From: Candidatus Micrarchaeota archaeon | GTDB lineage: Archaea > Micrarchaeota > Micrarchaeia > Micrarchaeales > Micrarchaeaceae | Direction of reading: 5' to 3' | Assembly (NCBI GenBank): GCA_027365735.1 | Contig: DAHXLY010000032.1 | Span: 1 to 55,297 of the forward strand | Length of the DNA stretch: 55,297 nt | Part shown: in pieces, positions 13,129 through 55,174 of the stretch | Numbering within the stretch: position 1 is the first letter of the stretch | Layout of the letters: every line of letters starts with the position of its first letter | Position numbers and translations under genes: made by a program | The notes under the pieces: model-generated | Told to the model about the DNA's origin: nothing | Seen by the model: only the letters and a program-made list of their open reading frames with translations | Databases searched by the model: none

Positions 13129-13236
13129 CTAGTGTAGCGGCAGAATCAGGCGTGGGGGCTCTTCTATCTCCTTGAGGACCCCCTTGCTGATCGTGTAGGG
13201 TTTTGGTGGTTTCAATTGGAATGTTACTGACGACAT
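13129..13236 (-). pseudogene. truncated member of the LKPPKPYTIS family (35 codons)
   Basis: Hand translation of the minus strand gives MSSVTFQLKPPKPYTISKGVLKEIEEPPRLILPLH*. It starts 5 nt after the stop of 13242..13811. Its head matches MASTTFQLKPPKPYTIS of 54590..55174. Confidence 0.6.
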
Positions 13237-13241
13237 GATTA

Positions 13242-13811
13242 TCACTGCGGTCTTTGTGCAACCGGCACCCCGACCACCACCGGAGCGGCAATCTGCGGCT
13301 CGTAGTCGGCATACAGGAAGAAACGCCAGCCAATGCCGGGAGCGACGTAGTCCGAATAGACGCCGAACGACAGCGGCCGGTTTCCCTTACAAACATTAAC
13401 CTTCCGCTCTGCCGAGAGCCTTTCCTCCCTTGCAATCTCTCTTAGCTCGCCTTTTTCGTTGATTGTGAATACTCCTTCCTTTTCTATACCCTGACCCGCG
13501 AGCCAGAAATGCTTTCCCTTCAGGGCGTTCTTGAGCTGTTCGTCCTCCATCAGGAGAAGAAGGAGTTCCTGGTATGTCATGGGCCTCAGCCCTGCCTCTG
13601 AAAGGAGTTTCATTGACTCAGGATGATTTGCCCTTTTTTCAAGGATGTGCAACGTCTTTCCGGTAGCGCCCATGACCTGCCTGAAGCCGTTTTTGTCGGC
13701 CTGCGGCGGTCTCCTCGGCTCGACTGGCAACGGTTCCGCGAGTGCCGCGTCCAAAGCCTCCTGGCTGATCGTATACGGCTTTGGTGGCTTCAGCTGCATC
13801 ATTCCCTGCAT
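13242..13811 (-). CDS. LKPPKPYTIS-family protein, copy A (189 aa), unknown function
   Basis: Colinear with 34893..35483, 43268..43858 and 54590..55174. Shared blocks are MQLKPPKPYTISQEALDA, GATGKTLHILEK, LLSEAGLRP.TYQE, LLMEDEQLKNALKGK.FW.AGQG, GVFTINEKGEL, GN.PLSF.VYSD and APVVVGVP. Differences between paralogs are in-frame, which supports coding. Confidence 0.85.
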   Translation of the reverse strand: MQGMMQLKPPKPYTISQEALDAALAEPLPVEPRRPPQADKNGFRQVMGATGKTLHILEKRANHPESMKLLSEAGLRPMTYQELLLLLMEDEQLKNALKGKHFWLAGQGIEKEGVFTINEKGELREIAREERLSAERKVNVCKGNRPLSFGVYSDYVAPGIGWRFFLYADYEPQIAAPVVVGVPVAQRPQ

Positions 13812-13892
13812 ATCTATCGCTAGGGCGTCGTTTTTTCTGATATTTAATGGCTACTATTTTGAACAAAAACAGCATAAGGTGTCGTTATTTTG
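13812..13892 (-). promoter_or_regulatory. conserved 5' module of the family (TATA box plus upstream block), copy A
   Basis: Minus-strand read: CAAAATAACG...GCTGTTTTTGTTC...AGCCATTAAATATCAGAAAAAACGACGCCCTAGCGATAGAT-ATG. TATA TTAAATAT is at 13840-13847. The module begins 5 nt after the stop of the upstream wHTH gene. Confidence 0.6.
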
Positions 13893-13896
13893 ACAT

Positions 13897-14241
13897 CTAC
13901 TTCTTCTCCTGCTTTTCTGGCTGTGGTGGCTGCGGCTTTGGCTCTTCCGACTGTTTTGGTTGCGGTGCGGACTGCTGCGGCAGCTGGCTGATTATCGTGT
14001 AAACTGTGCCGAGCGCATCAGCGAGCCTCATTCCCTTCTCGGTGAGCTTGATCTCCTTTATCTTTCCGTGCTTCTCGTTCGCGGTCAGGCCCATCTGCTC
14101 GCACTTCTTTATGAAGTTGCTCGTATGCACGTAGGTCGAGTCGCTCGCCTTGGCCAGGGTCGCAAGGTACCACGGCTGCTGGACGTTCTTCAACAGCAGG
14201 AATATACGAGCCTGCTTGTCCTTGAGAAGTATCACTCCCAT
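13897..14241 (-). CDS. winged-helix DNA-binding protein with Gln/Pro-rich tail
   Basis: 114 aa. ARIFLLLKNVQQPWYLATLAKASDSTYVHTSNFIKKCEQMGL...KEIKLTEKG reads as HTH plus wing, followed by the tail QQSAPQPKQSEEPKPQPPQPEKQEKK. Confidence 0.6.
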   Translation of the reverse strand: MGVILLKDKQARIFLLLKNVQQPWYLATLAKASDSTYVHTSNFIKKCEQMGLTANEKHGKIKEIKLTEKGMRLADALGTVYTIISQLPQQSAPQPKQSEEPKPQPPQPEKQEKK

Positions 14242-14270
14242 CGAATCAGGATATGTTCTTTCTGAAGATA

Positions 14271-15077
14271 TTAAGTTGTTTGTTCGCCGGCCCCCAGCTT
14301 GAGATGCCCCTCGAGGTCCATTTCGAAAAGCCTGTCATCCTTAGCCTGCTGTCTCTCGTACTTCGACTTGTCAACGTAGTCCTTCCTGAACAGCAACAGG
14401 CCTAGGAGAGTACCGACCACGAAACCGGGGTAAGATACAATTCCAAGGTCGTTCACCGCGGTTTGGGACATTATGCCGGCGAGTTGCACGCCAAACGAGG
14501 CGCCATGCTGGTTGATGAAATCTATAGCTCCAGAAACCAACCCGTAAATGAAGCTCACAGTTCCAAGGAATGCATACCTGGTGTTCTTTTCCATCAGCCC
14601 GCGCGGATCGAACATGTCCTTCAATGCGCTCTTTGGCGCATCCTGCCTGATCAACTCCTCCGCGTTCTTGTAGTAGGTGAACCTTATCTCGTTTAGCATC
14701 CTCTTGGTGAGCCTTCCGACCTGCGCATCAAATGCGTTTATCTCCCTCTTCAGCTTCCTGTTCTTCTTTGTCGGGGAGGCGTCGCACAGCTGCTCCGCAT
14801 ACTTCTTGACCAGCTCCACAGCGGTATCGAACGCCTGCTGCGGCCTGAAATAATCCTCCCAAAGCGACCTCTTGAGCTCCTCTGTGACTTGGAGGTTGCC
14901 GCTCCTCGCCTGTTCCCTGATTCCCCTTAGTTTTAGGTACTGCTCCATCTGCAGGTGGTACACGGGCTGAAGCTTCCTCAGGGATTCATGCGTCTTTTCA
15001 TAGCTCGGGCTCGTGATTGAGAGGATGCTCTCAACTACGCGGTTTTGGTTCCCGTTCATCTTCGTTGCTGTTGCCAT
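14271..15077 (-). CDS. hypothetical membrane protein (long helical N-domain plus two C-terminal TM segments)
   Basis: 268 aa, with hydrophobic segments FLGTVSFIYGLVSGAIDFI and YPGFVVGTLLGLLLF followed by a charged tail. The upstream sequence CAGCTACCATTAAGTATCAGAAAA (15107-15130, minus) resembles the family promoter core. Confidence 0.6.
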   Translation of the reverse strand: MATATKMNGNQNRVVESILSITSPSYEKTHESLRKLQPVYHLQMEQYLKLRGIREQARSGNLQVTEELKRSLWEDYFRPQQAFDTAVELVKKYAEQLCDASPTKKNRKLKREINAFDAQVGRLTKRMLNEIRFTYYKNAEELIRQDAPKSALKDMFDPRGLMEKNTRYAFLGTVSFIYGLVSGAIDFINQHGASFGVQLAGIMSQTAVNDLGIVSYPGFVVGTLLGLLLFRKDYVDKSKYERQQAKDDRLFEMDLEGHLKLGAGEQTT

Positions 15078-15202
15078 TCCCTCACTTTCGCATCATAAAT
15101 AGCGCATTTTCTGATACTTAATGGTAGCTGAAATGTGAAATGTTTGTGAAAAATATTGCTATTTTGATACCGGCAAGTGGCGGTTATCGAGGAAAAACAT
15201 AA

Positions 15203-15277
15203 CGGGTCTGGCGGGATTTGAACCCGCAACCTTCTGGTCCGAAGCCAGACGCGCTATCCAAGTTACGCCACAGACCC
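15203..15277 (-). tRNA. tRNA-Arg: tRNA-Arg (anticodon TCG)
   Basis: Reverse complement GGGTCTGTGGCGTAACTTGGATAGCGCGTCTGGCTTCGGACCAGAAGGTTGCGGGTTCAAATCCCGCCAGACCCG. Acceptor GGGTCTG/CAGACCC, anticodon arm TCTGG-CTTCGGA-CCAGA. Confidence 0.9.
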
Positions 15278-15328
15278 ATTGAATAAAATAAGCATCAGCA
15301 AAGATTTATATTAGAAAGAGTGAGAGGC

Positions 15329-16042
15329 CTATTCCACAGGCCGGTTGGCCATGAAGGTGTTCATCTTCGACTGTTTAATGCCCTCGATCGTCTCCCAGTA
15401 CTGGCGGATGTGCTTCTGGAACTCCTCATTCTTCATGTTCGCCTTCACCGCGTCGACGGTCTTCTGGTCGGACGGGTATCCAGAGCCTATTTCAACGCCG
15501 AGGTCGTCCTCGATCTTCCTGACTGCATCGTCTCTCGTCACTTTTGCTATGATGCTAGCTGCCGAAACGACCGGATATCTTGCATCCGCCTTGTGCTCGG
15601 CGACTATCTTAGTGTATTGCCCCTTGACGCGCTCCATCTTCACCCCGTCCACCCTTGTCGCTTTGGTGCTGTAGATATTCACGCGCATCCCGAATTTGCT
15701 CGCAATCACGTCCGGCGAGTCGAGATATAGAGTGGAAACGTGGTTCTCGAGCTTCTCGAACAGCCTTGCGAACCTGACCGCCTCGAGCTCGTTGAGGGAG
15801 ATGTTGCTCGCCATTGCGTTGTTTATCTCCTCCGGGTAGATGCAGTCCACCAACACTTCCGTGGCGGCCTTCTTGATTTTGCTGAACAGCTCCGATCTCC
15901 TTTCAGCAGACAGAAGTTTGGAGTCCCTCACCCCGATGTCGGCGAGCCTCTTCTCACTCGTCTTGTTGATCGCCACTATCGAGATCACCAGCGGGCCGAG
16001 CACCGCCCCTCTGCCTGCCTCATCTCCTCCTGAAATTATCAT
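15329..16042 (-). CDS. rnhB: ribonuclease HII
   Basis: MIISGGDEAGRGAVLGPLVISIV (DEAGRG), DSKLLSAERR, YLDSPD, SAASIIAKVTRD. Confidence 0.9.
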   Translation of the reverse strand: MIISGGDEAGRGAVLGPLVISIVAINKTSEKRLADIGVRDSKLLSAERRSELFSKIKKAATEVLVDCIYPEEINNAMASNISLNELEAVRFARLFEKLENHVSTLYLDSPDVIASKFGMRVNIYSTKATRVDGVKMERVKGQYTKIVAEHKADARYPVVSAASIIAKVTRDDAVRKIEDDLGVEIGSGYPSDQKTVDAVKANMKNEEFQKHIRQYWETIEGIKQSKMNTFMANRPVE

Positions 16043-16097
16043 AAAGCACCTGCCAAGCTGTGCTAATATATTGCCAGATTAAATATAAAAAGCGGTG

Positions 16098-16583
16098 CTA
16101 ATCCCTCCTCAATACCCTGGCTGGTCGGGTTACAGTCTCGGTCACTATCCTCATGGCCGTACCGTTTAGCGCCTTTTCCACCAGCTCCCCGGCCCTGCGG
16201 GCGGCGAGTTCGCCCATTGTAACGCCCCCATCAACCTCTTCCGTCCAGTCACGGAGGTTGGCGTATATGTTTGACCCGCAGATGTACAAACCAACCATCA
16301 ACCTGCCGAGCAAAACCTCCCTCTCAGAGTGACCATCTTTGCCATCAGACCGATGTAGCGATGCTTTGTTGACCCAGTATATGGAGTTGACCAGATCCAG
16401 ATAATCGTTTAGGTAGGCTTGGAGTTCCGATGAAAAAGCATCGCTTGCGCCCTTTACGCGTATCGACTTGATGTTGTCCCGCGGCCAGTTGTCAATGCCC
16501 TGGAGCTCAGAGGCAAGTTGCATGAACCCCTCCCTGAGCTTCGCTTCCGGGGAAGCTTCCTGTAGTTTTGCTGTAATTGCCAT
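16098..16583 (-). CDS. hypothetical protein
   Basis: 161-aa ORF with plausible composition and no recognised motif. Confidence 0.5.
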   Translation of the reverse strand: MAITAKLQEASPEAKLREGFMQLASELQGIDNWPRDNIKSIRVKGASDAFSSELQAYLNDYLDLVNSIYWVNKASLHRSDGKDGHSEREVLLGRLMVGLYICGSNIYANLRDWTEEVDGGVTMGELAARRAGELVEKALNGTAMRIVTETVTRPARVLRRD

Positions 16584-16670
16584 GCTTTGGCTCAGTTCGA
16601 ATTGTTATTTATACCTTCGGCTCTGCCGTAAAACCAAAAGAATTAGAGAAAATAAAAGAAAAGAAGAACT

Positions 16671-16922
16671 TTACCAGTTCTTCCTGTCCACGACCGCGTA
16701 GTCGTTCACTGCCAAAACGGAATTGTACGGGATCTTGATCTGCCCGCCCTCGACCTTCATCTTGTTCGCAAGGCCCGAGTCCAGGTTCGGCTCGACCACC
16801 AAGTTGGTTATCTTGCCCGTTACCTCGCTTATCTCTATGTCGAACAGCCTGCCGACATCGAATCCGTCGCTCGTTATTACTTTCTTGCCTACAAGTTGCC
16901 TCGCTATGATGAATTTTACCAT
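16671..16922 (-). CDS. PRC-barrel domain protein
   Basis: 83 aa. LVGKKVITSDGFDVGRLFDIEISEVTGKITNLVVEP...IPYNSVLAVNDYAVV is a typical small archaeal PRC barrel. Confidence 0.7.
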   Translation of the reverse strand: MVKFIIARQLVGKKVITSDGFDVGRLFDIEISEVTGKITNLVVEPNLDSGLANKMKVEGGQIKIPYNSVLAVNDYAVVDRKNW

Positions 16923-17047
16923 TCAAACACCTGTTTTCTTGACGAAAAGTCAATATGTTATTAGCTATTTGATTTATAAACGTTTACCTTTTTTCTCGAT
17001 AGTAACCTATAGTGGAATTTTGATATTTTGGGGTGTTTTGGCGCTTT

Positions 17048-17605
17048 TTACTCCGCAGTCAGCGCGTATCTCACCGCAATCAGCATCAGCCAGGTGATGA
17101 AGTACGAGATGAACGCAAACAGGCTGTTCCACGCCGGGGCGTAGACGAAGAGCCCCTGCCTTATCAGTAACCACTCTCCAAGTGACCCAAAGAGCGCGAA
17201 GACGAAGCAACTGGCTAGCGAATGCATGGCGTTGAATTTCCTTGGCATGCGCATCGCCCATGCCGTCCCTCCGAAGAAGGCAATCCCCATTACCTGGAGC
17301 GGGACCACGCCGACCGCAAATTGGCTTATGGTGTGCCATAGGCCAAACACCCAGCCGGTGTTCTCGAATATGAAATCGAACACCAAGAGGAAGAGTCCGA
17401 CCGCCATCGCCTTCGGCAAACTTCTGCTCTTGTTGAGATACACTTCCAAAGCGAACCACACGATAGCGCTCGCAAGGAGGATCCACCATGCAAGCTGACC
17501 GACGTGCACAAAGTAGAACAGCAGCCCCAATAGTATGAAATATCCGACCAGAACACTGAGTTCTGTCGATTCTTTGCTGCCAACGTAACTTTTCATTAAG
17601 AGCAC
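17048..17605 (-). CDS. hypothetical integral membrane protein
   Basis: 185 aa with about 5-6 hydrophobic helices. No family recognised. Confidence 0.6.
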   Translation of the reverse strand: MLLMKSYVGSKESTELSVLVGYFILLGLLFYFVHVGQLAWWILLASAIVWFALEVYLNKSRSLPKAMAVGLFLLVFDFIFENTGWVFGLWHTISQFAVGVVPLQVMGIAFFGGTAWAMRMPRKFNAMHSLASCFVFALFGSLGEWLLIRQGLFVYAPAWNSLFAFISYFITWLMLIAVRYALTAE

Positions 17606-17693
17606 CGTACCCTAAGTCTAGAGTACATCTTGATTGTAAGCAAAAATTCTTATACTGCAGGCTTTCGTTCTGCGGGCCGATGAAGCTTTAATG

Positions 17694-18008
17694 CTATGGC
17701 CTTAGCAGCTGCATCGCTAGAACGCCTGCCTTTGTAGCGGCAAAAACCGTCTCGGCTAGTCCGGATTCCTCCGGTGTTGGCTGTTTTTTAATTGACAGGC
17801 CTTCGTTCTTAACGAACCCACCATCGACAAGCGGTGCTAGGTAGTAGCATACCGTGTCCTCGCCCATATGTGAACCGCGCAATTTCAATAGCCTCTCTGA
17901 TATTCCCTTTGATGAAAGTGCCTTTTCGGATGTACTCAATTCACGTAGAATTATAACGCTGTTTAGCGGCATCCTCTCAATCTCGCTAATCCTGTATCCC
18001 AATGCCAT
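17694..18008 (-). CDS. putative winged-helix (ArsR/MarR-like) DNA-binding protein
   Basis: 104 aa. SVIILRELSTSEKALSSKGISERLLKLRG...DTVCYYLAPLVDGGFVKNEG looks like HTH plus wing. Weak call. Confidence 0.4.
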   Translation of the reverse strand: MALGYRISEIERMPLNSVIILRELSTSEKALSSKGISERLLKLRGSHMGEDTVCYYLAPLVDGGFVKNEGLSIKKQPTPEESGLAETVFAATKAGVLAMQLLRP

Positions 18009-18064
18009 AATACCACAGAAAGCTTTCCAGTGGTCAGCTATTTAAGGAATTCGTGCAAACAAAA

Positions 18065-18137
18065 GTGCGTCAGCCGGGATTTGAACCCGGGTTGTCGCCT
18101 TGGGAAGGCGAAGTTCTACCAGGCTATACTACTGACG
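18065..18137 (-). tRNA. tRNA-Gly: tRNA-Gly (anticodon CCC)
   Basis: Reverse complement GCGTCAGTAGTATAGCCTGGTAGAACTTCGCCTTCCCAAGGCGACAACCCGGGTTCAAATCCCGGCTGACGCA. Anticodon arm TCGCC-TTCCCAA-GGCGA. Confidence 0.88.
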
Positions 18138-18154
18138 CGCAGAAAAATATTAGA

Positions 18155-18931
18155 CTACCTGATATATGAAGGCTTCCTGGGCTCCTCGATTCCCGGTGGC
18201 ATCGCAATCCCTCCACCCTGCTGGCGTTCCAATTCCTTCAGCGCCGCGGCGGTTTTTTCGATTATCTTGTCGAGGTTCTTGGTGTTCACGTCAAGCCCTA
18301 TACACTTCGCCAACACCTTAAGTACTGCCTTAGCCGCCGATGCATCAATGTCCAGCACAGTCGTCTCTCCCATTATGCATATGCCGTCCAGCTTCGCCAT
18401 CTTCGCGAATGCGATTATCATTCCTGCCGATCCGAGGATCGCGCCTCTCGTCTTTCCGAAGACAATTCCGCTCTCCTTGAATTGGTCCTTCACCTCCTTC
18501 CTGGTGACATTCCCGTAAACCGCAGGCTCCTTTGCCATCTCTCTTGCCGCATTGTACCCGCCAAGCGTGTAGATGAAACTTCCTCCGAGCTTGTCCTTGA
18601 AAAACCTGACGATCTCGTGGTTTACCTCGTACTGGCCCTCGCTGGTTATCGCCTGCGTCTCGCCGGTCAGGAGCACGATGTCGTTCTTCAGCTTCTTGTC
18701 CTTTAGGACATAGAACCTGTTGCCAACCAGCCTTATCCCGCCGTTCTTCAGCATAACAACCTGGTGTGGGAAGTGAGCCGAGTACATCGTTGCAAACTTT
18801 TCAAATTTAAACTGGTGCCTCAGGTGTTCGGCGATGAGCTTACCGACGCTCCCGATGCCTGGTAGCCCGACTATCATTATCGGTTTGTTGAGCTTGACAG
18901 GCCTCTTCATCACTATTCGCGTTCCTTGCAT
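18155..18931 (-). CDS. PAC2-family (proteasome assembly chaperone-like, COG1938) protein
   Basis: The N-terminal KPIMIVGLPGIGSVGKLIAEHL is typical of the archaeal PAC2 family. It lies downstream of aIF2-alpha, as in the conserved archaeal cluster. Confidence 0.7.
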   Translation of the reverse strand: MQGTRIVMKRPVKLNKPIMIVGLPGIGSVGKLIAEHLRHQFKFEKFATMYSAHFPHQVVMLKNGGIRLVGNRFYVLKDKKLKNDIVLLTGETQAITSEGQYEVNHEIVRFFKDKLGGSFIYTLGGYNAAREMAKEPAVYGNVTRKEVKDQFKESGIVFGKTRGAILGSAGMIIAFAKMAKLDGICIMGETTVLDIDASAAKAVLKVLAKCIGLDVNTKNLDKIIEKTAAALKELERQQGGGIAMPPGIEEPRKPSYIR

Positions 18932-18985
18932 CTTCTCATCTATGTAGGATTTGCCAGTTGGTCGATTAATACCTATCGGTGCTGA

Positions 18986-19789: not shown

Positions 19790-19796
19790 CTTTGAA

Positions 19797-20081: not shown

Positions 20082-20110
20082 AAAATCAACTTCCTTGTTT
20101 AATGTTAATG

Positions 20111-28629: not shown

Positions 28630-28754
28630 GCCAGGGTGGCAGAATCCGGTAATGCGCCGGTCTTGAATTTTCAAAATCTCAAGAGCTGATTTGTGATGCG
28701 AACAGGCCAACCGGTGCCCTTACGGGCTTTAGGGTTCAAATCCCTACCCTGGCG
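28630..28754 (+). tRNA. tRNA-Ser: tRNA-Ser (anticodon TGA) with a ~41-nt intron after position 37
   Basis: Acceptor GCCAGGG/CCCTGGC plus G73. The 5' half of the anticodon stem is CCGGT (28657-61), with loop CTTGAA and anticodon TGA at 28664-66. The 3' half ACCGG lies only at 28710-14, so 28668-28708 must be spliced out (junction +/- 1-2 nt). Long variable arm TGCCCTTACGGGCTT, T-arm TAGGG-TTCAAAT-CCCTA. Confidence 0.85.
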
Positions 28755-34811: not shown

Positions 34812-34892
34812 CAAAATAACAATCTTCAGCACCGCTTTTGTTCTTTTCCACAGCCATTAAATATCAGAAAAAACGACCCCATAGCGATAGAC
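34812..34892 (+). promoter_or_regulatory. conserved 5' module of the family, copy B
   Basis: CAAAATAACAATCTTCAGCACCGCTTTTGTTCTTTTCCACAGCCATTAAATATCAGAAAAAACGACCCCATAGCGATAGAC-ATG, with TATA at 34857-34864. Confidence 0.6.
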
Positions 34893-35483
34893 ATGCAGGG
34901 AATGATGCAGCTGAAGCCCCCAAAACCCTACACGATCAGCCAGGCGGCTTTGGACGCGATACTCGCAGAACCATCGCCAATCGAGCCGAGGAGACCGCCG
35001 CAGCCGGAGCCGCAGGCGGTGCAGCAGGCTGACAAAAACGATTTCAGGCAGGTCAGGGGCGCTACTGGAAAGACGTTGCACATACTTGAAAAAAGGGCAA
35101 ATCATCCTGAGTCATTGAAACTCCTTTCAGAGGCAGGGCTGAGGCCTATGACGTACCAGGAAATCCTTCCTCTCCTGATGGAGGACGAACAGCTCAAGAA
35201 CGCCCTGAAGGAAAGGTGGTTCTGGATCGCGGGCCAGGGTATGAAAAAGGAAGGAGTGTTCACAATCAACGAAAAAGGCGAGCTAAGGGATATTACAAAG
35301 GAGGAAAACCCATCAGCAGAGCAGAATGTTCGTGTATGGTCCGGAAACCAGCCGCTGTCGTTCTTCGTCTATTCGGACTACTACGCCGCCTACGTTGGCA
35401 AGTGTTTCGACCTGGATGCCTCCCTCCGGCCGCAGTATGTTGCTCCAGTGGTTGTCGGGGTGCCTTCACTAGCGCGCGGTTAA
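34893..35483 (+). CDS. LKPPKPYTIS-family protein, copy B (196 aa), unknown function
   Basis: MQGMMQLKPPKPYTISQAALDAILAEPSPIEPRRPPQPEPQAVQQADKNDFRQVRGATGKTLHILEK..., colinear with copies A, C and E. Confidence 0.85.
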   Translation: MQGMMQLKPPKPYTISQAALDAILAEPSPIEPRRPPQPEPQAVQQADKNDFRQVRGATGKTLHILEKRANHPESLKLLSEAGLRPMTYQEILPLLMEDEQLKNALKERWFWIAGQGMKKEGVFTINEKGELRDITKEENPSAEQNVRVWSGNQPLSFFVYSDYYAAYVGKCFDLDASLRPQYVAPVVVGVPSLARG

Positions 35484-41808: not shown

Positions 41809-42546
41809 ATGAATTATTCATACGATCAAGACCGTGAAGGTGTGGTGTTCGCCAACATAAAGGACGTCAACGCCAGCTTCAAGGATCTCGGGGCGGTCTG
41901 CACCGCGATAAGGTACAAGACCGTGCCGGTGGCAGTTGCAACCCTGGAAGCGACGATAAACGAGGGCATGCCAATCCCGTACGTAAGGCACAACATAAAC
42001 ATGGGCGCGCGCCACGAGCTGGGAGGGAAGAAGGGAAGATATCCGATAAGGTGTGCGAAGATAGTCCAGAAGGTCCTGATCAACGCGATGGCGAATGCCA
42101 AGAACAAGGGGATGAACCCGGAGCACATGTATGTGATTCACGCTTCAGCAAACAAGACAATCATCGCAAGGAGGGGCCCGTCGGTTGGGCCGTCCTCGAT
42201 CACCGGAGGGCCGTCAGGTTACTCCGGAGGAAGGGCGATGGACCTCGAGTTCGCAAGGGTGGAACTGGGCCTTTCAGAAATGAACGAGAAGAAAATGAAG
42301 CACTCAATGGTGACCCACATCAAGTACACGATGTCAAAGGTCCCGAAGGTAATGGTTAGGAAGGCTCAGGCCGCATATGCACTCCCTAAGAAGGTCGAAA
42401 AGAAAAAGGAAAAGGGCAAGGACCATGACCACGACCACAAGGGAGAGAAGAAGCCGCTGATCGCGCTCGAAAAGAAGGAATCGCCGAAGGAGAAGTACGA
42501 AGATAAGAAAGGCGAACTGAAGACGGAGCAGAAGGTGCCGCAATGA
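41809..42546 (+). CDS. rpl22: ribosomal protein L22 (uL22) with ~88-aa C-terminal Lys/Glu/His-rich extension
   Basis: Core ...NASFKDLGAVCTAIRYKTV..A...L........PY.RHN...GRYP.RCAKIVQKVL.NA..NA. After about residue 157 comes the non-canonical tail ...KKVEKKKEKGKDHDHDHKGEKKP... Confidence 0.9.
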   Translation: MNYSYDQDREGVVFANIKDVNASFKDLGAVCTAIRYKTVPVAVATLEATINEGMPIPYVRHNINMGARHELGGKKGRYPIRCAKIVQKVLINAMANAKNKGMNPEHMYVIHASANKTIIARRGPSVGPSSITGGPSGYSGGRAMDLEFARVELGLSEMNEKKMKHSMVTHIKYTMSKVPKVMVRKAQAAYALPKKVEKKKEKGKDHDHDHKGEKKPLIALEKKESPKEKYEDKKGELKTEQKVPQ

Positions 42547-43166
42547 CGATAGAGAGAAAATTCATAGATAACGCTGTAATCAAGCTGAAGATATCGAGGT
42601 ATCTCGAGAAGGAACTCCAGAGAGCCGGATTCTCGAGGGTCGATATCCAGAAGACCCCCGTGCTCACAAGAATTGCGGTTCACGTCCTGAACCCGGGAAA
42701 GGTGATCGGCAGGGGCGGGTCGACGATCGACCGACTCACGGAAACGATCAGAACCAAGTTCAAGGTCGATAACCCGCAGATAAACGTCACGGAGGTCGAG
42801 AACAAGATGCTCGAGCCGATGCTGGTCGCGAGGGACCTTGCGGAAAGGCTGGAGCGAGGGTTGAACGCAAGGAAGATAATCCAGGGAGCCCTCAGGATCA
42901 TAATCGAAAACGGCGCGCTCGGCGCGGAGATAATAATTTCGGGCAAGCTCGCGGCGAAGGGCGCGAGGGCCAAGATGATCAAGAAGTCGGTCGGTTACAT
43001 CCCGAAGGCCGGAAACGTCATGGAGCTGGTGAGGGAGGCCGAGGCTGTAGCATACCCGAAGTACGGCGCAATCGGGGTGAAGGTCAGGATTGTGCCGCCA
43101 GGGACGGTCTTCCCGGACAGGGAGATAAGGAAGATCGAGGTTCCGAAGGCGATCCTGAACGCCTAA
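42543..43166 (+). CDS. rps3: ribosomal protein S3 (uS3)
   Basis: KH domain: KFIDNAVIKLKISRYLEKELQRAGFSRVDIQKTPVLTRIAVHVLNPGKVIGRGGSTI. ATGA overlap with the L22 stop. Confidence 0.92.
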   Translation: MTIERKFIDNAVIKLKISRYLEKELQRAGFSRVDIQKTPVLTRIAVHVLNPGKVIGRGGSTIDRLTETIRTKFKVDNPQINVTEVENKMLEPMLVARDLAERLERGLNARKIIQGALRIIIENGALGAEIIISGKLAAKGARAKMIKKSVGYIPKAGNVMELVREAEAVAYPKYGAIGVKVRIVPPGTVFPDREIRKIEVPKAILNA

Positions 43167-43186
43167 TCGCCGTCGGCAACCGGTAT

Positions 43187-43267
43187 CAAAATAACAACCC
43201 CCAGCCCTGCTTTTGTTCTTTTCCACAGCCATTAAATATCAGGAAAAACTACCCCCTACCGATAGAC
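43187..43267 (+). promoter_or_regulatory. conserved 5' module of the family, copy C
   Basis: CAAAATAACAACCCCCAGCCCTGCTTTTGTTCTTTTCCACAGCCATTAAATATCAGGAAAAACTACCCCCTACCGATAGAC-ATG, with TATA at 43232-43239. It begins 20 nt after the rps3 stop. Confidence 0.6.
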
Positions 43268-43858
43268 ATGCAGAGAAGTATGCAGCTGAAGCCACCAAAA
43301 CCATACACGATCAGCCAGGAGGCCCTGGACGCGATACTCGCAGAACCATCGCCAATCGAGCCGAGGAGACCGGAGCCGCAGGCGGCACAGCAGGCTGACA
43401 AAAACGATTTCAGGCAGGTCAGGGGCGCTACCGGGAAGATGTTGTACATCCTTGAAAAAGAGGCAAATCATCCAGATTCGATGAAACTCCTTTCAGAGGC
43501 CGGGCTGAGGCTGCTGTCATACCAGGAAATCTTTTCTCTCCTGATGGAGGACGAGCAGCTCAAGAACGCCCTGAAGGGAAAGTGGTTCTGGATTGCGGGA
43601 CAGGGCATGAACAAATATGGTATTTTTACAATTGATGAAAAGGGAGGGCTTGTTCCACTTCCACAAGGATTCTTCAAGAAGAAAACCTCAGTAGAACAGA
43701 AGGTTGGTGTTTCGCATGGAAACCAGCCGCTGTCGTTCTACGTCTATTCGGACTCCGGCGCCGCCCTCAATGGCAGGCGTTTCTACCTGTTTGCCGACGG
43801 CAAGCCGCGGGCTGTCGCTCCGGCGGTGGTCGGAGTGCCGGTCGCAAATAAAGTATAG
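43268..43858 (+). CDS. LKPPKPYTIS-family protein, copy C (196 aa), unknown function
   Basis: MQRSMQLKPPKPYTISQEALDAILAEPSPIEPRRPEPQAAQQADKNDFRQVRGATGKMLYILEK..., colinear with copies A, B and E. Confidence 0.85.
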   Translation: MQRSMQLKPPKPYTISQEALDAILAEPSPIEPRRPEPQAAQQADKNDFRQVRGATGKMLYILEKEANHPDSMKLLSEAGLRLLSYQEIFSLLMEDEQLKNALKGKWFWIAGQGMNKYGIFTIDEKGGLVPLPQGFFKKKTSVEQKVGVSHGNQPLSFYVYSDSGAALNGRRFYLFADGKPRAVAPAVVGVPVANKV

Positions 43859-47677: not shown

Positions 47678-47703
47678 TCTTGTTTTAAAAGAGAATCTGC
47701 GAT

Positions 47704-47778: not shown

Positions 47779-47790
47779 TTTAGTGATACT

Positions 47791-49187: not shown

Positions 49188-49490
49188 TTAGTAATGAAGG
49201 TGCTTCTCCTTCCCGCATCTGTTGCATACGTAAGCGACATACTTGTGCGAACTTACGACATTTACCCTGCAGTTCAACCCCGGCACGAGGAGGGTCCTGC
49301 AGGCGGCGCATATCCTGTCCTTCATCTTCTTTGGAATCGGGACCTTGTAGTGCGTGCTTATGCGCTTGAGGGTCTCGACGTACCTGTGTGCGAGGCCTTG
49401 GTTTTCGTTTATCATGCTTTCCGAGAGCCCGAAAAGCAGCTCTATCCTCTCGGCAGCTATCTTCTTCACCAGGTCCTTCCTCTCCTTCAT
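49188..49490 (-). CDS. rnp4: RNase P protein component 4 (Rpp21/Rpr2)
   Basis: AAERIELLFGLSE...LAHRYVETLKRISTHYKVPIPKKMKDRICAACRTLLVPGLNCRVNV...YVCNRCG (zinc ribbon). Confidence 0.8.
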   Translation of the reverse strand: MKERKDLVKKIAAERIELLFGLSESMINENQGLAHRYVETLKRISTHYKVPIPKKMKDRICAACRTLLVPGLNCRVNVVSSHKYVAYVCNRCGKEKHLHY

Positions 49491-49514
49491 ATGCTCAGCG
49501 ATAAATAGGATAGC

Positions 49515-50048
49515 TCAGATCGCTCCAAGCTGCTGGAGCAGCTCCTGCATCGGCTGCTCGAGGTTGTCGCTCGATATGGTGATCAGGTTGTTGGCAATCT
49601 CAATGTCCTTGTCGGTCGGCACACCGTGGAAGAGCTGCACCTGCCTCAGCGACTCGGGGTCCTTGGGCGTCGCGACCTTCTTATTGGTAATTATGTTGGC
49701 CCGCGCCGCGATGCGGATCGCATTGTTTATCGCGCCGACTATCTTGCCGCTCTGGTTAAATTGGAGAAGCATGTCGAGGAACGGCCTGTATTCGTAGATC
49801 TTGTACTCATCCAAACCCGGACCGTCTGCAATAACTATGCCGTCGTAATCCGACACCCTCGCCTTGTTGGTGTTGATGTCGGGCTTGTAGACCGCGCCGT
49901 GGTTCCCTATGCAGTCCTTGGTCGAATAGCTGGTCAGCTGGTACCGTATCCCCCACTTGTCGAAGAACATCTTGAGCATCGAGACCGTCTCGTCCCGGAA
50001 GTTGTTCGGGGCAATGAAAACCAGGAACCTCATCGTCTCATCTTCCAA
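49515..50048 (-). CDS. DJ-1/PfpI-like domain protein lacking the nucleophile Cys
   Basis: MRFLVFIAPNNFRDE...YDGIVIADGPG...GKIVGAINNAIRIAA follows the DJ-1/PfpI layout, but has AINNA where AICHG/P is expected. The start abuts the PCNA stop. Confidence 0.5.
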   Translation of the reverse strand: MEDETMRFLVFIAPNNFRDETVSMLKMFFDKWGIRYQLTSYSTKDCIGNHGAVYKPDINTNKARVSDYDGIVIADGPGLDEYKIYEYRPFLDMLLQFNQSGKIVGAINNAIRIAARANIITNKKVATPKDPESLRQVQLFHGVPTDKDIEIANNLITISSDNLEQPMQELLQQLGAI

Positions 50049-50792
50049 TCAAGACTCCATGTACGGAGCCAGGAAATAAGCGAGAGTTGCGTCGCCGATC
50101 TTGTAATCGATCTTTATCGGCTCCTCCGTCTTGAGTGACAGCGACACCGCCGATTCGGCTGGGCATGCGCTGATTATCCGCTCGAGGTACTCGAGGTTGA
50201 ATGTCGCTGATGAGGCCTTGCTCACGTCGAGCTTCTTTATCGCATCGGTATTGTTGAGGTGCTCCTCCTCCAGCTCTCCGGCGTCGCCCTTGGCTAGCAC
50301 CATAAAGGAGTTCTTGTCGGTCTTGAATCCCACATAAGTTGATAGGAGGTTCGCGTCCTTCAGTATTTCCTTGAGCGAATCGCTCTTCACCTCGATCATA
50401 GACTCGAAGGCGATCTTCGGCTCCTTGTCGGCGTCCTTCTTGACGTCTATCATCGGCAGTTTATACCTCCTGCGGCTGTTCGGGCCAATAAATTCTATTG
50501 CCAGCTTGTTGCCGCTGTCCTTCATGCTCAGCTGTTCGTCCGGCCTCGCGCTGGAGAGTATCTTGCTGAAGTTGTCCAGATTAAGCCCAACTCCGGTCTG
50601 CTTCTCGACTTCATACTTCGAGAACGCCTTGCTCGGGATGAAGAATGCGACCATGCTTATGCCCGAAGGGTCCATCGCGCGGAGGGTTATCCCCTCCTTT
50701 GATATGTTGAAGGTCCCCTCGTCCACTAAGCTCACTATAGAGTCCACGCAGTTTTTCCAATATTTCGCATTGTCTATCTTTATCTCGAACAT
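50049..50792 (-). CDS. pcn: DNA polymerase sliding clamp (PCNA)
   Basis: MFEIKIDNAKYWKNCVDSIVSLVDEGTFNISKEGITLRAMDPSGISMVAFFIP...YKIGDATLAYFLAPYMES, 247 aa. ATG at 50792. Confidence 0.9.
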   Translation of the reverse strand: MFEIKIDNAKYWKNCVDSIVSLVDEGTFNISKEGITLRAMDPSGISMVAFFIPSKAFSKYEVEKQTGVGLNLDNFSKILSSARPDEQLSMKDSGNKLAIEFIGPNSRRRYKLPMIDVKKDADKEPKIAFESMIEVKSDSLKEILKDANLLSTYVGFKTDKNSFMVLAKGDAGELEEEHLNNTDAIKKLDVSKASSATFNLEYLERIISACPAESAVSLSLKTEEPIKIDYKIGDATLAYFLAPYMES

Positions 50793-50923
50793 TTTATCAC
50801 TTCCTCTCTCCCAAGAACAGACGAAAAAGTACAAAACTATTCTATTCTAAAGGAATATAAACGTATTTGAACGGGGGAGGGATGCCACTACTCCGAGAGA
50901 AAAATACATCTCCTCGGCGAAAG

Positions 50924-51202
50924 TCAATTCTTTCCGCCCAGCACACAACTGCAGCTGTTGCAGCAGAAGCACCTCATGCGCCTCTTGCCGGAGAATATCA
51001 GTATTACCAACAACGCGGCAAGCCATGTATGGGCCGTGTACATTATGCCCATGGAGAATAGGGTGTTCAGCGCCCATATTAGTACCAGAGGAAGGGCTAT
51101 CAGGCCAAGAATTACCACCAAAATGCACCACCGTCCTCCGCAGCAGTTGCATCTGCCATTCGTTTTTCCCGTCTTCGCACCGGTCTTGGGCATGAATACC
51201 AC
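50924..51202 (-). CDS. small Cys-rich membrane protein
   Basis: 92 aa. CNCCGGRWC, then two hydrophobic helices, then CFCCNSCSC. It competes with ORFs 50847..51239 and 50958..51230, and this frame is the most protein-like. Confidence 0.4.
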   Translation of the reverse strand: MVFMPKTGAKTGKTNGRCNCCGGRWCILVVILGLIALPLVLIWALNTLFSMGIMYTAHTWLAALLVILIFSGKRRMRCFCCNSCSCVLGGKN

Positions 51203-51264
51203 AGGATGGCTCGGATGGAAGGGTTATTAAACGGTTCACCGTTGCCGGAAATAAAAAGGGAAAG

Positions 51265-51337
51265 TGGGGCTGTCGAGATTTGAACTCGAATCGCCAACTC
51301 CCGAAGCTGGCAGTATACCAGGTTAGCCCACAGCCCC
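51265..51337 (-). tRNA. tRNA-Pro: tRNA-Pro (anticodon CGG)
   Basis: Reverse complement GGGGCTGTGGGCTAACCTGGTATACTGCCAGCTTCGGGAGTTGGCGATTCGAGTTCAAATCTCGACAGCCCCA. Acceptor, anticodon (CCAGC-TTCGGGA-GTTGG) and T arms are clean. The D-stem pairs poorly in my hand fold. Confidence 0.8.
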
Positions 51338-51396
51338 GCTGTGGTTTCAGTGGTAAGTATTTGACGGAACAGCATTTAAGCCTTGGGATTAGCAGC

Positions 51397-52422
51397 TCAT
51401 TTCGGGAGCAACTCCACGAGCCTCTGCATCGCAGACTGCGCCGCCTCCCTGAGATGCTTGGTGTCGATCTGCTGCAGCGATGTCGGCAGCTCCACGCCCG
51501 CGGCCGCCGGCTGCTTGGACCTCTGCTTCATGTTCTTGAAGACTGCATATCTGCTCTCATCAAGCTTGCTGATCTTCGGCTCGCTCGGGGCGGTCAGGAG
51601 CGTTGGTTCCGCGACCTGCATGAGCTCGGTTCCAAGCAGTATTGCGGTTACCACCGCCGGTACGTGGCGCCCCTCTCCCTCATCTTTCATGTGGGTGACC
51701 GCTGGCTTCTGAACAGCCAGGCTCAGCGCCCTCTTTGAAACTCCCCAATGTTTGAAAATATTGACATGTATCCTCTGCTGCCTCGGGTCCCATGTGTTGA
51801 GCCTTGGTATCAGTTCGCGCATGTGCACCCCGATGTTTATGTTCCTAACCTGTTCGCTCGTCATGGTGACCTTTGGCTTGTCGTCCGCCTTTGGCACGCC
51901 AACTTCCTTCTGCACCCCTGCATTCTGGACATCCGCCATCTTCGGGGGCACAAGACTCTTCGGCGCCTCCACCGGCTTCAGGAACGGCTGTGCTATGATG
52001 TGTGGCTTCGGCCTCCTCTTCTCGGTCAGGTCCTCCGGCTGGCCGGTCTCTGGAGATATTGGTTCCTCAGCCTTCTTTATCTCTGCAATCTTCTTCTCAA
52101 TTGCAACCGCCACCTTCTTCGCTCTGACTCTCTCTGGTGCCTTAGGCCTGCTCGCCTTGGCATTTGCCATCATGTCCTCCACTTGGATCGCCGGCTCATC
52201 ATCCGTGTTTTGGGATGGCCTGTTCTTTTGGAGCTCGCTGAAATGCAACATCGTCACCGGTGGCCTTATCTCCTCTTCCACATTCGGCTGCTCCCGTTCA
52301 GAAGGGTCCTCCCTCCTCCACCTCAGGGAGTTCTCCGGCTCATGCAGGCCCCTGAAGTTGAGCCTGTCAGTAGCCGGTTTCTTTATCCTTGATGTGGTTT
52401 CTGATTCGTCCATCTTTCCCAC
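51397..52422 (-). CDS. hypothetical protein (disordered Lys/Glu/Pro-rich N-half, ordered C-half)
   Basis: 341 aa. Two long plus-strand ORFs (51748..52392, 51752..52462) are Ser/Phe/Leu/Cys-rich mirror artefacts. No recognised motif. Confidence 0.6.
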   Translation of the reverse strand: MGKMDESETTSRIKKPATDRLNFRGLHEPENSLRWRREDPSEREQPNVEEEIRPPVTMLHFSELQKNRPSQNTDDEPAIQVEDMMANAKASRPKAPERVRAKKVAVAIEKKIAEIKKAEEPISPETGQPEDLTEKRRPKPHIIAQPFLKPVEAPKSLVPPKMADVQNAGVQKEVGVPKADDKPKVTMTSEQVRNINIGVHMRELIPRLNTWDPRQQRIHVNIFKHWGVSKRALSLAVQKPAVTHMKDEGEGRHVPAVVTAILLGTELMQVAEPTLLTAPSEPKISKLDESRYAVFKNMKQRSKQPAAAGVELPTSLQQIDTKHLREAAQSAMQRLVELLPK

Positions 52423-52626
52423 TTCATTACTCTGGTATGCTATTGAATTTTGTGATATTTAAGTAGCTCGAAAATGAGCTAAAATACGAAGAAATTTCGC
52501 TTTTTTGAGACCTCCTGAATTATGCCATTTTTTCTGTTTCCCTCTGTGATTCAATCACTCCCACCTAATATTTAAGCCTTTTGTGAAGTTTCGGTCGGTT
52601 TGACGTCGTACTTCCGCTATTCGGCC

Positions 52627-52689
52627 AGGGAAAAAGAAGGAGAAAAGAGGAAAAAAGAAAAGAGGAAAAAGGAAAGGGAAAAAGGAAAA
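52627..52689. repeat. 63-nt uninterrupted polypurine (A/G) tract
   Basis: The 63-nt stretch 52627-52689 (AGGGAAAAAG...AAAGGAAAA) contains no pyrimidine on the plus strand. It is built of loose GGAAAA/GAGGAAAA units. Confidence 0.9.
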
Positions 52690-52706
52690 TGCGGGCCCCA
52701 GCCCGC
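52627..52706 (-). terminator. hairpin plus long pyrimidine/T-rich run downstream of 52715..53326
   Basis: On the minus strand the stop (52715) is followed by the hairpin GCGGGC-TGGG-GCCCGC (52691-52706) and then TTTTCCTTTTTCCCTTTCCTTTTTCC... Oligo-T runs are archaeal termination signals. Confidence 0.45.
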
Positions 52707-52714
52707 TTGCAGAA

Positions 52715-53326
52715 TTACGGGTGCGGAAGCCACAATGACGGGAATGCGATGCCCGCGATGAGCAGGATCACACCATATATTATGACCAGCACAGCCGAGC
52801 CGACAGCCCACGTCATGAACGTGGCGAAGTAGCTGCTCGTCTTCTGCAGGTTCGTCAGCGCGATGATTGTGACCAGCACGCTCCATAGCCCTGTGAACCA
52901 TGAGACGAACGGTATCCATGAGAATGCGACCCACGCACATGCGCCGTAGACCAACGCAGAAAGCGTTGTCTTGAAGTCGTTCTTCTTGAATGTCTTCAGC
53001 TGGTGGCCCGTCCAGTTGATGAACCATGCGCTGATCAACAGCCCGATCGGCACCAACAGCAGGTAGCCCAACAGCGTCACGAGTATGATGCTTCCTGTCA
53101 ATCCTAGCGCGCCGAGCGTCCCTCCAAACCTTCCGAGGATGGACGAGTAATACACCGCGAATCCACCGCCTACGAAGAGTTCGCCTAGTATGAGGATAAC
53201 CAAAGGTATTATCGCTACCCTGTAGTACATCTTCATGGCCTCTTCGACCTTCCATACCTTGACCGTCCTCTTCTCGGGGTTGAGGAACACGTCTATCGCC
53301 CATTTGAACTGGTCCCAGACCATCAT
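52715..53326 (-). CDS. integral membrane protein (Yip1-like topology)
   Basis: 203 aa with five hydrophobic helices after a short soluble N-terminus. The family call is weak. Confidence 0.6.
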   Translation of the reverse strand: MMVWDQFKWAIDVFLNPEKRTVKVWKVEEAMKMYYRVAIIPLVILILGELFVGGGFAVYYSSILGRFGGTLGALGLTGSIILVTLLGYLLLVPIGLLISAWFINWTGHQLKTFKKNDFKTTLSALVYGACAWVAFSWIPFVSWFTGLWSVLVTIIALTNLQKTSSYFATFMTWAVGSAVLVIIYGVILLIAGIAFPSLWLPHP

Positions 53327-53387
53327 TGAATCACAAAAGTGATTGTGAGGAAAGGTTTAAAAACCAACCACCACATTTATCTGTCGG

Positions 53388-53687
53388 GTGGTCGTCGTGG
53401 AATCGCTCTCATACGAGGTGAAAAACGAGGCGAAGGTGCGCCAGGCGCTCGAGTCGCTCGTCGAGGACAAGGAGCGGAGGCTTTTCGGCGGAAGGGGGAT
53501 AGTCAACCTACTCCCCACCAGCAACGGCGTCTCGATCGAGCTGGAGGACGGCTCGTCGGTGAGCGTAGAGATTACGAGCGACAAGAAGGTAGAGGTATTT
53601 CTCGGTGCGCAGACCCAGAGGGAGTTGGACGAGCTGAAGGGCGCGGTCGACAGGTTCCTCGGGCAGAAGTTGGGTTACAAACCCTAA
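53388..53687 (+). CDS. hypothetical small protein
   Basis: 99 codons from GTG, acidic/helical-beta composition, no motif recognised. Lies immediately upstream of the family module at 53724. Confidence 0.45.
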   Translation: MVVVESLSYEVKNEAKVRQALESLVEDKERRLFGGRGIVNLLPTSNGVSIELEDGSSVSVEITSDKKVEVFLGAQTQRELDELKGAVDRFLGQKLGYKP

Positions 53688-53723
53688 TGCAATCAACGGC
53701 CCCAGCAGTGCAGAACTAAGGTG

Positions 53724-53804
53724 CAAAATAACAACCTCCAGCACCGCTTTTGCTCTTTTCCACAGCCATTAAATATCAGAAAAAACCACACCCTGGCGAT
53801 AGAT
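53724..53804 (+). promoter_or_regulatory. conserved 5' module of the family, copy D
   Basis: CAAAATAACAACCTCCAGCACCGCTTTTGCTCTTTTCCACAGCCATTAAATATCAGAAAAAACCACACCCTGGCGATAGAT-ATG, with TATA at 53769-53776. Confidence 0.6.
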
Positions 53805-54587
53805 ATGCAGGGAATGATGCAGCTGAAGCCACCAAAGCCGTATACGGTCAGCCCGGAGGCCCTCAAGGCGATAGAGGATCTTCCTCCCTTAAGGACAACT
53901 TCCACAGATGGAATGCGCGCCAAACCGCAAAATATGCAATCGGCGATAGTCCCGACTGGAAGGAACCAGTCATGGCTGGATGCAAGATTGGCATTGGACA
54001 GGGAGGGAAAGAGGATGCCTACGAATGTGGATTACGATAAAGTATTAGTCGGGTCGGAAAAGTGGAGGGAAATAAGGAATGTTTTCCCCGCATGGACCGA
54101 CAGCGTATTGGTCTATCCTGCAAAGAACGGAGAGTTCAATGCGGGAAGGGATGTTGTAGACGCTTTTAAGGACGGTGCGGGAAACGAATGGGTATTCTCC
54201 GCCGCTTCAATTCCAAAAGAGGCGATAGGGAGGAAGGGAGTGGGGATACACATAGACCATCCAGCAATAGAGGTGCGCGGAAAGACCGTAATACTGTCCG
54301 CAGGACCGGAAAGCACAGTAACAGTACTTGAAAATTTCATTCAGGAAAGCGGAAAGACGGGAAAGGTCGACGAAAAGACAAGAGTGCCTCTGGCGGTTTC
54401 GAATGTCAATAATCTTCCTGCAGAACAGATGAGACGGCTCTGGAGAATTGATGGAGCAGGAGTAAGGCCTCTGGTCCGCGACCTCTACGGCTACGGCAAC
54501 AGGGACAGGCGGCTCGTCGGCGCGAACGGCAGGCAGGACATCCGTTTCGGGGTGGCGCTGGTCGAAACAGAAAATCCAAAGGTGTAA
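53805..54587 (+). CDS. LKPPKPYT(V)S-headed protein with a divergent 240-aa body (copy D)
   Basis: MQGMMQLKPPKPYTVSPEALKAIEDLPP..., after which it cannot be aligned by eye with the 190-aa type. The start at 53805 was chosen by homology of head and promoter; the listed 53721 start reads through the TATA box. Confidence 0.8.
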   Translation: MQGMMQLKPPKPYTVSPEALKAIEDLPPLRTTSTDGMRAKPQNMQSAIVPTGRNQSWLDARLALDREGKRMPTNVDYDKVLVGSEKWREIRNVFPAWTDSVLVYPAKNGEFNAGRDVVDAFKDGAGNEWVFSAASIPKEAIGRKGVGIHIDHPAIEVRGKTVILSAGPESTVTVLENFIQESGKTGKVDEKTRVPLAVSNVNNLPAEQMRRLWRIDGAGVRPLVRDLYGYGNRDRRLVGANGRQDIRFGVALVETENPKV

Positions 54588-54589
54588 TC

Positions 54590-55174
54590 ATGGCATCAAC
54601 AACATTCCAATTGAAACCACCAAAGCCATACACGATCAGCCAGGAGGCCCTGGACGCGATACTCGCGGAACCATCGCCAATCGAGCCGAGGAGACCGCCG
54701 CAGCCGGAGCCGCAGGCGGCGCAGCAGGCTGACAAAAACGGCTTCAAGCAGGTAAAGGGCGCTACCGGAAAGACGTTGCACATCCTTGAAAAATGGGCAG
54801 ATTATTCGGATTCGATGGAACTTCTCTCGGAGGCGGGACTGAAGCCGCCGTCATACCAGGAAATCCTTTCTCTTCTAATGGAGGACGAACAGCTCAGGAA
54901 CGCCCTGCAAGAAAAGTGGTTCTGGCTTGCAGGAGAGGGTATGAAAAAGAACGGAATATTCACAATCAGTGAGAAGGGGGAAATCAGGAAAATTAGGTGG
55001 AGAGAAAAACTCTCGTTAGAGCGGAAGGTTCATGTTTATAAGGGAAATCAGCCGCTGTCGTTCCGTGTCTATTCAGACGCCCCTGCCGCCGACCATGGCT
55101 GGCGTTTCGCCCTGGATGCCTACGCCGTGCCTCATAATGTCGCTCCGGTGGTGGTCGGGGTGCCAAAAACTTAG
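54590..55174 (+). CDS. LKPPKPYTIS-family protein, copy E (194 aa), unknown function
   Basis: MASTTFQLKPPKPYTISQEALDAILAEPSPIEPRRPPQPEPQAAQQADKNGFKQVKGATGKTLHILEK... The start is 2 nt after the copy D stop, and it has no promoter module of its own. Confidence 0.85.
   Translation: MASTTFQLKPPKPYTISQEALDAILAEPSPIEPRRPPQPEPQAAQQADKNGFKQVKGATGKTLHILEKWADYSDSMELLSEAGLKPPSYQEILSLLMEDEQLRNALQEKWFWLAGEGMKKNGIFTISEKGEIRKIRWREKLSLERKVHVYKGNQPLSFRVYSDAPAADHGWRFALDAYAVPHNVAPVVVGVPKT

Follow-up and report, generated by a model that had tools for sequence, protein, structure and literature searches.

Paralogous genes with a common N-terminal peptide in a Micrarchaeota genome are probable remote targets of diversity-generating retroelements

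A stretch of 55,297 nucleotides from a Candidatus Micrarchaeota archaeon (contig DAHXLY010000032.1 of assembly GCA_027365735.1; referred to here as the window) contains six open reading frames (ORFs) that start with the peptide (M/F)QLKPPKPYT(I/V)S, which raises the question of what kind of proteins these genes encode. The original prediction, made from the DNA letters alone, had seen in them one paralog family that could not be placed among known proteins. We found that the ORFs are very probably variable-protein (target) genes of diversity-generating retroelements (DGRs) in a genome of the DPANN archaea. DGRs are reverse-transcriptase systems for hypermutating receptors; to our knowledge, prokaryotes have no other system for the targeted hypervariation of proteins. 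DGRs are enriched among DPANN archaea and in the candidate phyla radiation (CPR), where they are thought to tune the attachment to host cells.

The six ORFs comprise four members of a first family, Fam1 (copies A, B, C and E), one member of a second family, Fam2 (copy D), and a remnant of 38 codons that consists of the N-terminal head only. They lie at the positions and on the strands first reported for them, except that the remnant spans 13129-13245 instead of 13129-13236. The Fam1 proteins are colinear, as had been predicted, with lengths of 189-196 aa and 70-77% identity to copy B. The notion of a single family did not hold, since the body of D is unrelated: D resembles the other copies in the first ~25 residues only. 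Remote homology between the Fam1 and Fam2 bodies was considered and rejected, as hhalign aligned nothing but the tail region, with a probability of 21%. A tblastn sweep of the window revealed no additional copies or fragments of either family. Because the protein sequences differ by 23-30% and the flanks are unrelated, the copies are not assembly duplicates of one locus.

The genes are real, expanded and restricted to their lineage, in agreement with the original prediction. Homologues of both families were found only in metagenome-assembled genomes (MAGs) of Candidatus Micrarchaeota, where every one is annotated as hypothetical. Profile searches with both families gave no match in NCBIfam, PHROG or the PDB sequences and nothing below E=0.07 in Pfam, including Lectin_C and FGE-sulfatase, the usual lectin-fold families of DGRs; neither profile nor structure searches assigned the proteins to a known housekeeping family. 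The AlphaFold2 model of copy B has a body with pLDDT >95, whereas head and linker are predicted at low confidence. When this model was compared with the PDB by Foldseek, the top 50 matches were all C-type lectin-like domains, with probabilities of up to 0.99, and for this reason DGR targeting was tested. Fam1 is thus predicted to adopt a C-type-lectin-like fold with the variable region (VR) at its C-terminal end.

If the genes are DGR targets, each protein would be a small ligand-binding domain and the last ~100 nt of its gene would be the VR. The DGR reverse transcriptase (RT) would copy the RNA of a template repeat (TR) and misincorporate opposite template adenines, after which the cDNA would replace the VR. 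The variation in the genes has the pattern of such a process. Between codons ~158 and 196 of five Fam1 genes, codons that are invariant (silent sites included, bar a few silent changes) are interleaved with codons that vary at positions 1 and 2 and are fixed at position 3. In the block of codons 171-180, the mean numbers of distinct bases at codon positions 1, 2 and 3 are 2.0, 1.8 and 1.0, respectively; outside codons ~158-196, position 3 is the most variable one. The segment GNQPLSF.VYSD...APVVVGVP, previously described as a beta-like block, is the VR itself.

We compared the VRs of the window with the TRs found in the cassettes of the closest relatives. The mismatches fell at TR adenines in 17-19 of 22-25 cases for the Fam1 copies and in 13 of 15 cases for Fam2 (p from 8e-7 to 5e-11). 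Between the copies, divergence reaches 54-71% at adenine sites, which is near saturation, and 7-12% at other sites. In the Fam1 template of the relative's locus L004, 16 codons are variable (AAC/AAT in most cases), enough for ~5e15 possible variants of the binding site; all four Fam1 copies share only one non-adenine difference from it, at position 69.

These results bear directly on a more conventional explanation, namely an ordinary lineage-specific paralog family (an effector or a selfish cassette) in which the C-terminal loop is under diversifying selection and no retroelement is involved. Such a family would be in line with a window that contains neither RT nor TR, and with the lack of database annotation for both families. 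However, the variation is confined to codon positions 1 and 2 of codons that alternate with others almost wholly identical at silent sites, it is concentrated at the TR adenines of the cassettes of five independent relatives, and both families adjoin DGR RTs in relatives. We therefore regard an ordinary paralog family as highly improbable and as effectively refuted by the codon pattern and the TR-adenine tests.

In related Micrarchaeota, both families occur in canonical cassettes that consist of the target gene, an RT-16 RNA, the TR and a DGR-type reverse transcriptase. A degenerate VR/TR pattern was scanned over one genome per GTDB species and matched a single Micrarchaeota MAG, FK5.bin94, at two sites 506 nt apart (locus L003). 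Here, a Fam1 VR (3483-3585) is followed by an intergenic TR (3989-4089) and directly afterwards by an RVT_1 RT; the TR has AAC/AAT at the variable codons, and 17/17 TR/VR mismatches are at TR adenines. The same was observed for further Fam1 cassettes, with 21/21 mismatches at TR adenines in L004, 16/19 in L012 and 17/17 in L013, and for the Fam2 cassette L006/L007 (18/19; TR at L006:11079-11169), which has an RVT_1 RT of 350 aa. The RT of L004 is partial, an N-terminal piece at the end of the contig. RTs adjoining both families (L003, L006, L012 and L013) carry the DGR hallmark motifs (I/L)GN(L/M)TSQ and YVDD, and the RTs of the relatives match phrog_1423 with E=2e-126. The RT-16 RNA (Rfam RF03019) fills the spacer between the stop codon of the target gene and the TR (L003:3777-3986, L004:10691-10873, L006:10878-11078), and in the same three cassettes the TR abuts the start codon of the RT. 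It seems, therefore, that in these archaea the RT-16 RNA forms the 5' portion of the template RNA of the DGR.

Moreover, alleles of the tail-bearing relatives vary almost only inside the VR. The six Fam2 alleles of the P0087 cluster differ in two residues outside the VR and are scrambled inside it, and nine of the ten differences between the Fam1 alleles P0024 and P0229 are located in the VR. Hence, DGRs actively target both families in nature.

Several observations were made around the relatives' genes. The RT of L003 (4096-5230) is broken into two ORFs that overlap, as would result from a frameshift or a sequencing error. An IS110-family transposase gene (1844-2830) is located just upstream of the target gene in this locus. 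Some other Fam1 cassettes adjoin a gene for a phage-type integrase, a gene for a ParE toxin or DUF87/TraG-like ATPases (L013:1592-2191, L002:5659-6659, L004:2239-8128), so that some cassettes may ride on integrated mobile elements. In L010, another Micrarchaeota contig, a third, unrelated pair of tandem paralogs (222 and 202 aa, 58% identical; 4352-5625) is situated upstream of a DGR RT (6001-7092) and is probably another DGR target family. The protein P0018 (277 aa, on a contig of 1369 nt) has an MCM N-terminal domain fused to a Fam1 body and VR. Since an MCM gene is convergent to a Fam1 gene in L001, this chimera is probably the product of misassembly or rearrangement at a locus of that kind.

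Some results weigh against the assignment of the window genes to a DGR. The cognate TR of their own genome was not recovered from any collection, so that the adenine test of the window VRs rests on the TRs of relatives; it was absent from the results of pattern scans over GTDB genomes, JGI metagenomes and IMG/VR. Within the 55-kb window, no TR, RT or RT-16 RNA was detected by a sliding comparison of the last 200 nt of each gene with both strands, a YxDD scan, tblastn with the RT of a relative, or Rfam. No stem of at least 5 bp is present within 90 nt downstream of the VR in any of the five window copies (0/5). Each window VR has 2-5 private non-adenine substitutions, compared with 0-1 in the RT-adjacent VRs of L003, L004, L006 and L013 and 3 in that of L012. 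Over 951 nt that span the VRs of both D and E, the window is 100% identical to a contig from another sample, and the window proteins all form singleton clusters. The Foldseek scores of Fam1 are modest (E ~4e-3, target-normalised TM 0.45-0.54). The structure matches of the Fam2 model are weak and scattered (lectin, OB-fold); its body may have a lectin-like fold into which a beta-domain is inserted. Finally, as already noted in the original prediction, the window proteins have neither a signal peptide nor a membrane segment. It is plausible that they take part in surface interaction or bind a ligand.

Given a window with no TR, RT or RT-16 RNA, all five intact targets are remote, and the TR/RT core would lie off the 55-kb contig. 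The two unrelated target families would require two TRs, one for each family. The contigs of three of the four nearest RTs were tried as the cognate core and rejected: the one with P0095 (L010) has the third target family, and L012 and L013 have more distant TRs of the Fam1 type.

Whether the copies are still rewritten can be judged from much the same evidence. We give an about even chance to a frozen repertoire, in which the DGR core has been lost or can no longer act on the copies, leaving a fixed, germline-encoded panel of once-diversified receptors that now change by ordinary mutation, duplication and recombination. The contig without a core and the private substitutions are consistent with this, as are the VRs of D and E that are identical in two samples and a 3' hairpin that is lost in 5/5 window copies and present in the three RT-linked relatives examined. 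The singleton clusters of the window proteins, whereas the RT-linked relatives have VR-only alleles, and the tandem arrays at non-syntenic positions in a sister genome point in the same direction. On the other hand, the analysis covered only 55 kb of the genome, other DGRs are documented to have remote targets (PMC5758913), and stasis is poorly tested by two samples that probably stem from a single study. Tandem neighbours that have the hairpin-less junction in common differ, moreover, in their near-saturated VRs, which implies that mutagenesis acted on copies of the present form. The VRs would have been written in trans after the copies had separated.

A somewhat smaller, though considerable, probability is given to an active DGR acting in trans, where one core or two at other sites of the ~1-Mb genome would still rewrite the remote targets from two TRs with no need for a hairpin. 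The near-saturated divergence at adenine sites fits a single shared TR; position 69 is the one non-adenine site at which all four Fam1 copies depart from the L004 TR in common. Trans action and remote targets are established, with seven remote targets in Treponema and plasmid-borne cores that act in trans (PMC5758913). In addition, contigs of a sister population are interrupted at these genes, an effect that hypervariable repeats often have. The missing hairpin, the private non-adenine changes and the unchanged VRs in two samples argue against ongoing diversification, and so does a collection of 15 billion proteins that has no variant alleles of the window proteins. Between the two, we lean slightly towards a frozen or slowly changing repertoire, in which rewriting would by now be rare or would have stopped.

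What, then, has taken the place of the hairpin region in the window copies? The RT-linked relatives have a C-terminal two-helix tail of ~45-60 aa after the VR that opens with DREAVAPK or GSEAAAPK. In L003, L004 and L006, a hairpin with a GC stem of 6-7 bp and a GAA loop follows 14-17 nt 3' of the VR; its DNA (CGACCGC-GAA-GCGGTCG or GGCAGC-GAA-GCTGCC) encodes these very residues and is thus located inside the tail. The window proteins, in which the tail is lost, end 2-8 residues after the VR and start instead with the head, QLKPPKPYTISQEALDAILAEP. When a profile of the six heads was compared with 1.84 billion representative proteins, the matches were Fam1 and Fam2 representatives only; two further candidates for a head on other protein families were both spurious repeat proteins. 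Pairwise comparison of 11 heads gave 228 synonymous and 39 nonsynonymous codon differences, and the head is under purifying selection. An origin of the head from the tail of the upstream gene in a tandem was rejected (local-alignment shuffle test, z <=2.9).

The tails of the relatives are also shared between the families. Within several Micrarchaeota lineages, Fam1 and Fam2 tails are near-identical (P0019/P0020 vs P0045, P0026 vs P0054, P0040 vs P0061; shuffle z = 20-28). A common terminal module on unrelated targets, the tail elsewhere and the head in the lineage of the window, is therefore a recurring pattern, and it may point to a shared partner or to a shared history of the cassettes. The head may be a docking or sorting peptide that replaces the role of the tail at the protein level.

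The copies also have their upstream sequence in common. An 81-nt block that runs from CAAAATAAC via a TATA-like GCCATTAAATATCAG to the ATG is conserved 5' of A, B, C and D; four exact copies were found, compared with a chance expectation of 0.14. Both E and the remnant are the second genes of tandem pairs, each linked to the gene before it by a conserved TGATAATCATG junction. The positions of all these features are given in Table 1. The promoter motif occurs a fifth time, in slightly diverged form (ACCATTAAGTATCAG, with TCAAAATAGCAA before it), at 15111-15125 (-) in front of a gene for a 268-aa membrane protein (14271-15077, -), so that the block may serve the organism as a strong promoter in general and not be specific to the family. 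A scan for bacterial promoters and terminators was uninformative for archaeal DNA.

Table 1. Location in the window of the head-bearing ORFs, their putative VRs and the blocks upstream of them
Feature	Position	Strand	Description
Copy A	13242-13811	-	Probable Fam1 DGR variable-protein gene, 189 aa; head, Pro/Gln linker, C-type-lectin-like body (predicted); 75% identical to B
Remnant	13129-13245	-	Head only, of Fam2 type (KEIEEPPRL resembles KAIEDLPPLR); second gene after A across the TGATAATCATG junction; body deleted
Copy B	34893-35483	+	Probable Fam1 DGR variable-protein gene, 196 aa; fold from AlphaFold2 and Foldseek
Copy C	43268-43858	+	Probable Fam1 DGR variable-protein gene, 196 aa; between ribosomal protein S3 gene and AglB-like gene
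Copy D	53805-54587	+	Probable Fam2 DGR variable-protein gene, 260 aa; common head, unrelated body
Copy E	54590-55174	+	Probable Fam1 DGR variable-protein gene, 194 aa; second in the D-E pair; without promoter block of its own
VR of A	13276-13376	-	On the L004 TR, 18/22 mismatches at TR adenines, p=1.6e-9
VR of B	35352-35452	+	17/22 mismatches at TR adenines, p=3.6e-8
VR of C	43727-43827	+	19/22 mismatches at TR adenines, p=4.7e-11
VR of D	54466-54556	+	On the L006 Fam2 TR, 13/15 mismatches at TR adenines, p=7.6e-7
VR of E	55052-55152	+	19/25 mismatches at TR adenines, p=3.8e-9
Promoter/leader block of A	13812-13892	-	CAAAATAAC ... GCCATTAAATATCAG ... ATG
Promoter/leader block of B	34812-34892	+	Conserved block
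Promoter/leader block of C	43187-43267	+	Conserved block
Promoter/leader block of D	53724-53804	+	Conserved block

The head-bearing copies of a sister population (sample ERZ27237454) are arranged in tandem, as Fam1-Fam1 and Fam2-Fam1 arrays that are non-syntenic with the window and at which the contigs break. Directly upstream of its Fam2-Fam1 pair, there is a gene (L001:145-3108) for a largely helical protein of 987 aa without a Pfam match and without a homologue in the window. When 25 neighbouring genes from the window and the related loci were compared all against all by BLASTP, no conserved partner gene emerged.

The gene content of the window is archaeal and includes a ribosomal-protein operon and an AglB-like gene, together with a probable intron-containing tRNA, seen as a 125-nt Rfam tRNA match at 28630-28754 (+) that was not called by ARAGORN. 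In the region 42543-43858, copy C is located directly behind the S3 gene, where the archaeal ribosomal-protein operon normally goes on, and is followed by the AglB-like gene. Among the DGR targets described by Wu et al., one 'unusual' target carries an archaeal-type S3 domain annotation (PMC5758913), which might reflect a neighbourhood like that of copy C.

On a more speculative reading, which we consider less likely than not, DGR targets of two unrelated families became detached from their RT cassettes. With tail and hairpin lost, they would have acquired a shared promoter and a docking peptide at the N-terminus and spread as dispersed copies and tandem arrays. The window copies have the 81-nt promoter block and the conserved head in place of tail and hairpin, and the head, like the shared tails of other lineages, would plug interchangeable binding domains into one cellular partner. 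Either one trans-acting core with two TRs would serve hairpin-less targets, which, if true, would be a new mode of target recognition, or the DGR would be lost and a germline-encoded receptor repertoire left, in which case somatic-style diversification would have turned into a multigene family.

DGRs, variable proteins with a lectin fold, remote targets and the abundance of DGRs in DPANN archaea were established before (PMC5758913, PMC8144416, PMC6349945, PMC5006420). Hence, no new kind of system is revealed here, and the novelty that had been claimed for the family is much reduced by the DGR assignment. New are the assignment of two unannotated Micrarchaeota families to DGRs and the detached architecture in the window, with a head, many copies and no hairpin. 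Surveys anchored on the RT cannot detect remote targets (PMC8144416). Our data indicate that such targets can be recognised by the comparison of paralogs alone, without an RT as an anchor.

The closest archaeal counterpart is AvpA, the variable protein of a DGR from Nanoarchaeota (Handa et al. 2016, PMC5006420), which is likewise a small protein with a C-type-lectin-type fold and the VR at the C-terminal end of the fold. AvpA also has a helical extension after the VR with a GC hairpin in its DNA, as in the Micrarchaeota relatives (~46 aa in AvpA, ~45-60 aa in the relatives). In contrast, the window copies have no extension and no hairpin and carry the N-terminal head instead. Moreover, the window proteins show no detectable sequence similarity to any PDB chain, and the best structural matches of Fam1 are C-type lectin domains of animals and not DGR proteins.

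With TvpA and the remote targets of Treponema denticola (Wu et al. 2018, PMC5758913), the window has in common that paralogous targets are scattered away from the RT and that their differing VRs fit a common TR. The systems differ in that the host is a DPANN archaeon with a tiny genome, that two unrelated target families would need two TRs, that at least five targets, some of them in tandem, lie within 42 kb, and that the window proteins have no lipoprotein or signal sequences. In the same study, DGRs of CPR and DPANN organisms were found mostly with one adjacent target (PMC5758913).

The DGR of the Bordetella phage BPP-1, with the variable protein Mtd (Guo et al. 2011, PMC3240598), shares the adenine-specific transfer from TR to VR and a VR at the C-terminus of a lectin-type fold, and the RT-linked relatives also share its GC-rich hairpin 3' of the VR. 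In the Micrarchaeota cassettes, however, no Avd gene was identified, and the TR is preceded by the conserved RT-16 RNA and adjoins the RT gene directly. The hairpin of BPP-1 is needed for efficient homing, although it is not strictly part of the definition of a DGR (PMC3240598), and the window targets lack it. The sister lineages thus represent a natural experiment, with RT-linked targets that have hairpin and tail on one side and dispersed, hairpin-less targets with a head on the other; this contrast bears on the need for a hairpin in archaeal homing and on the roles of the terminal modules.

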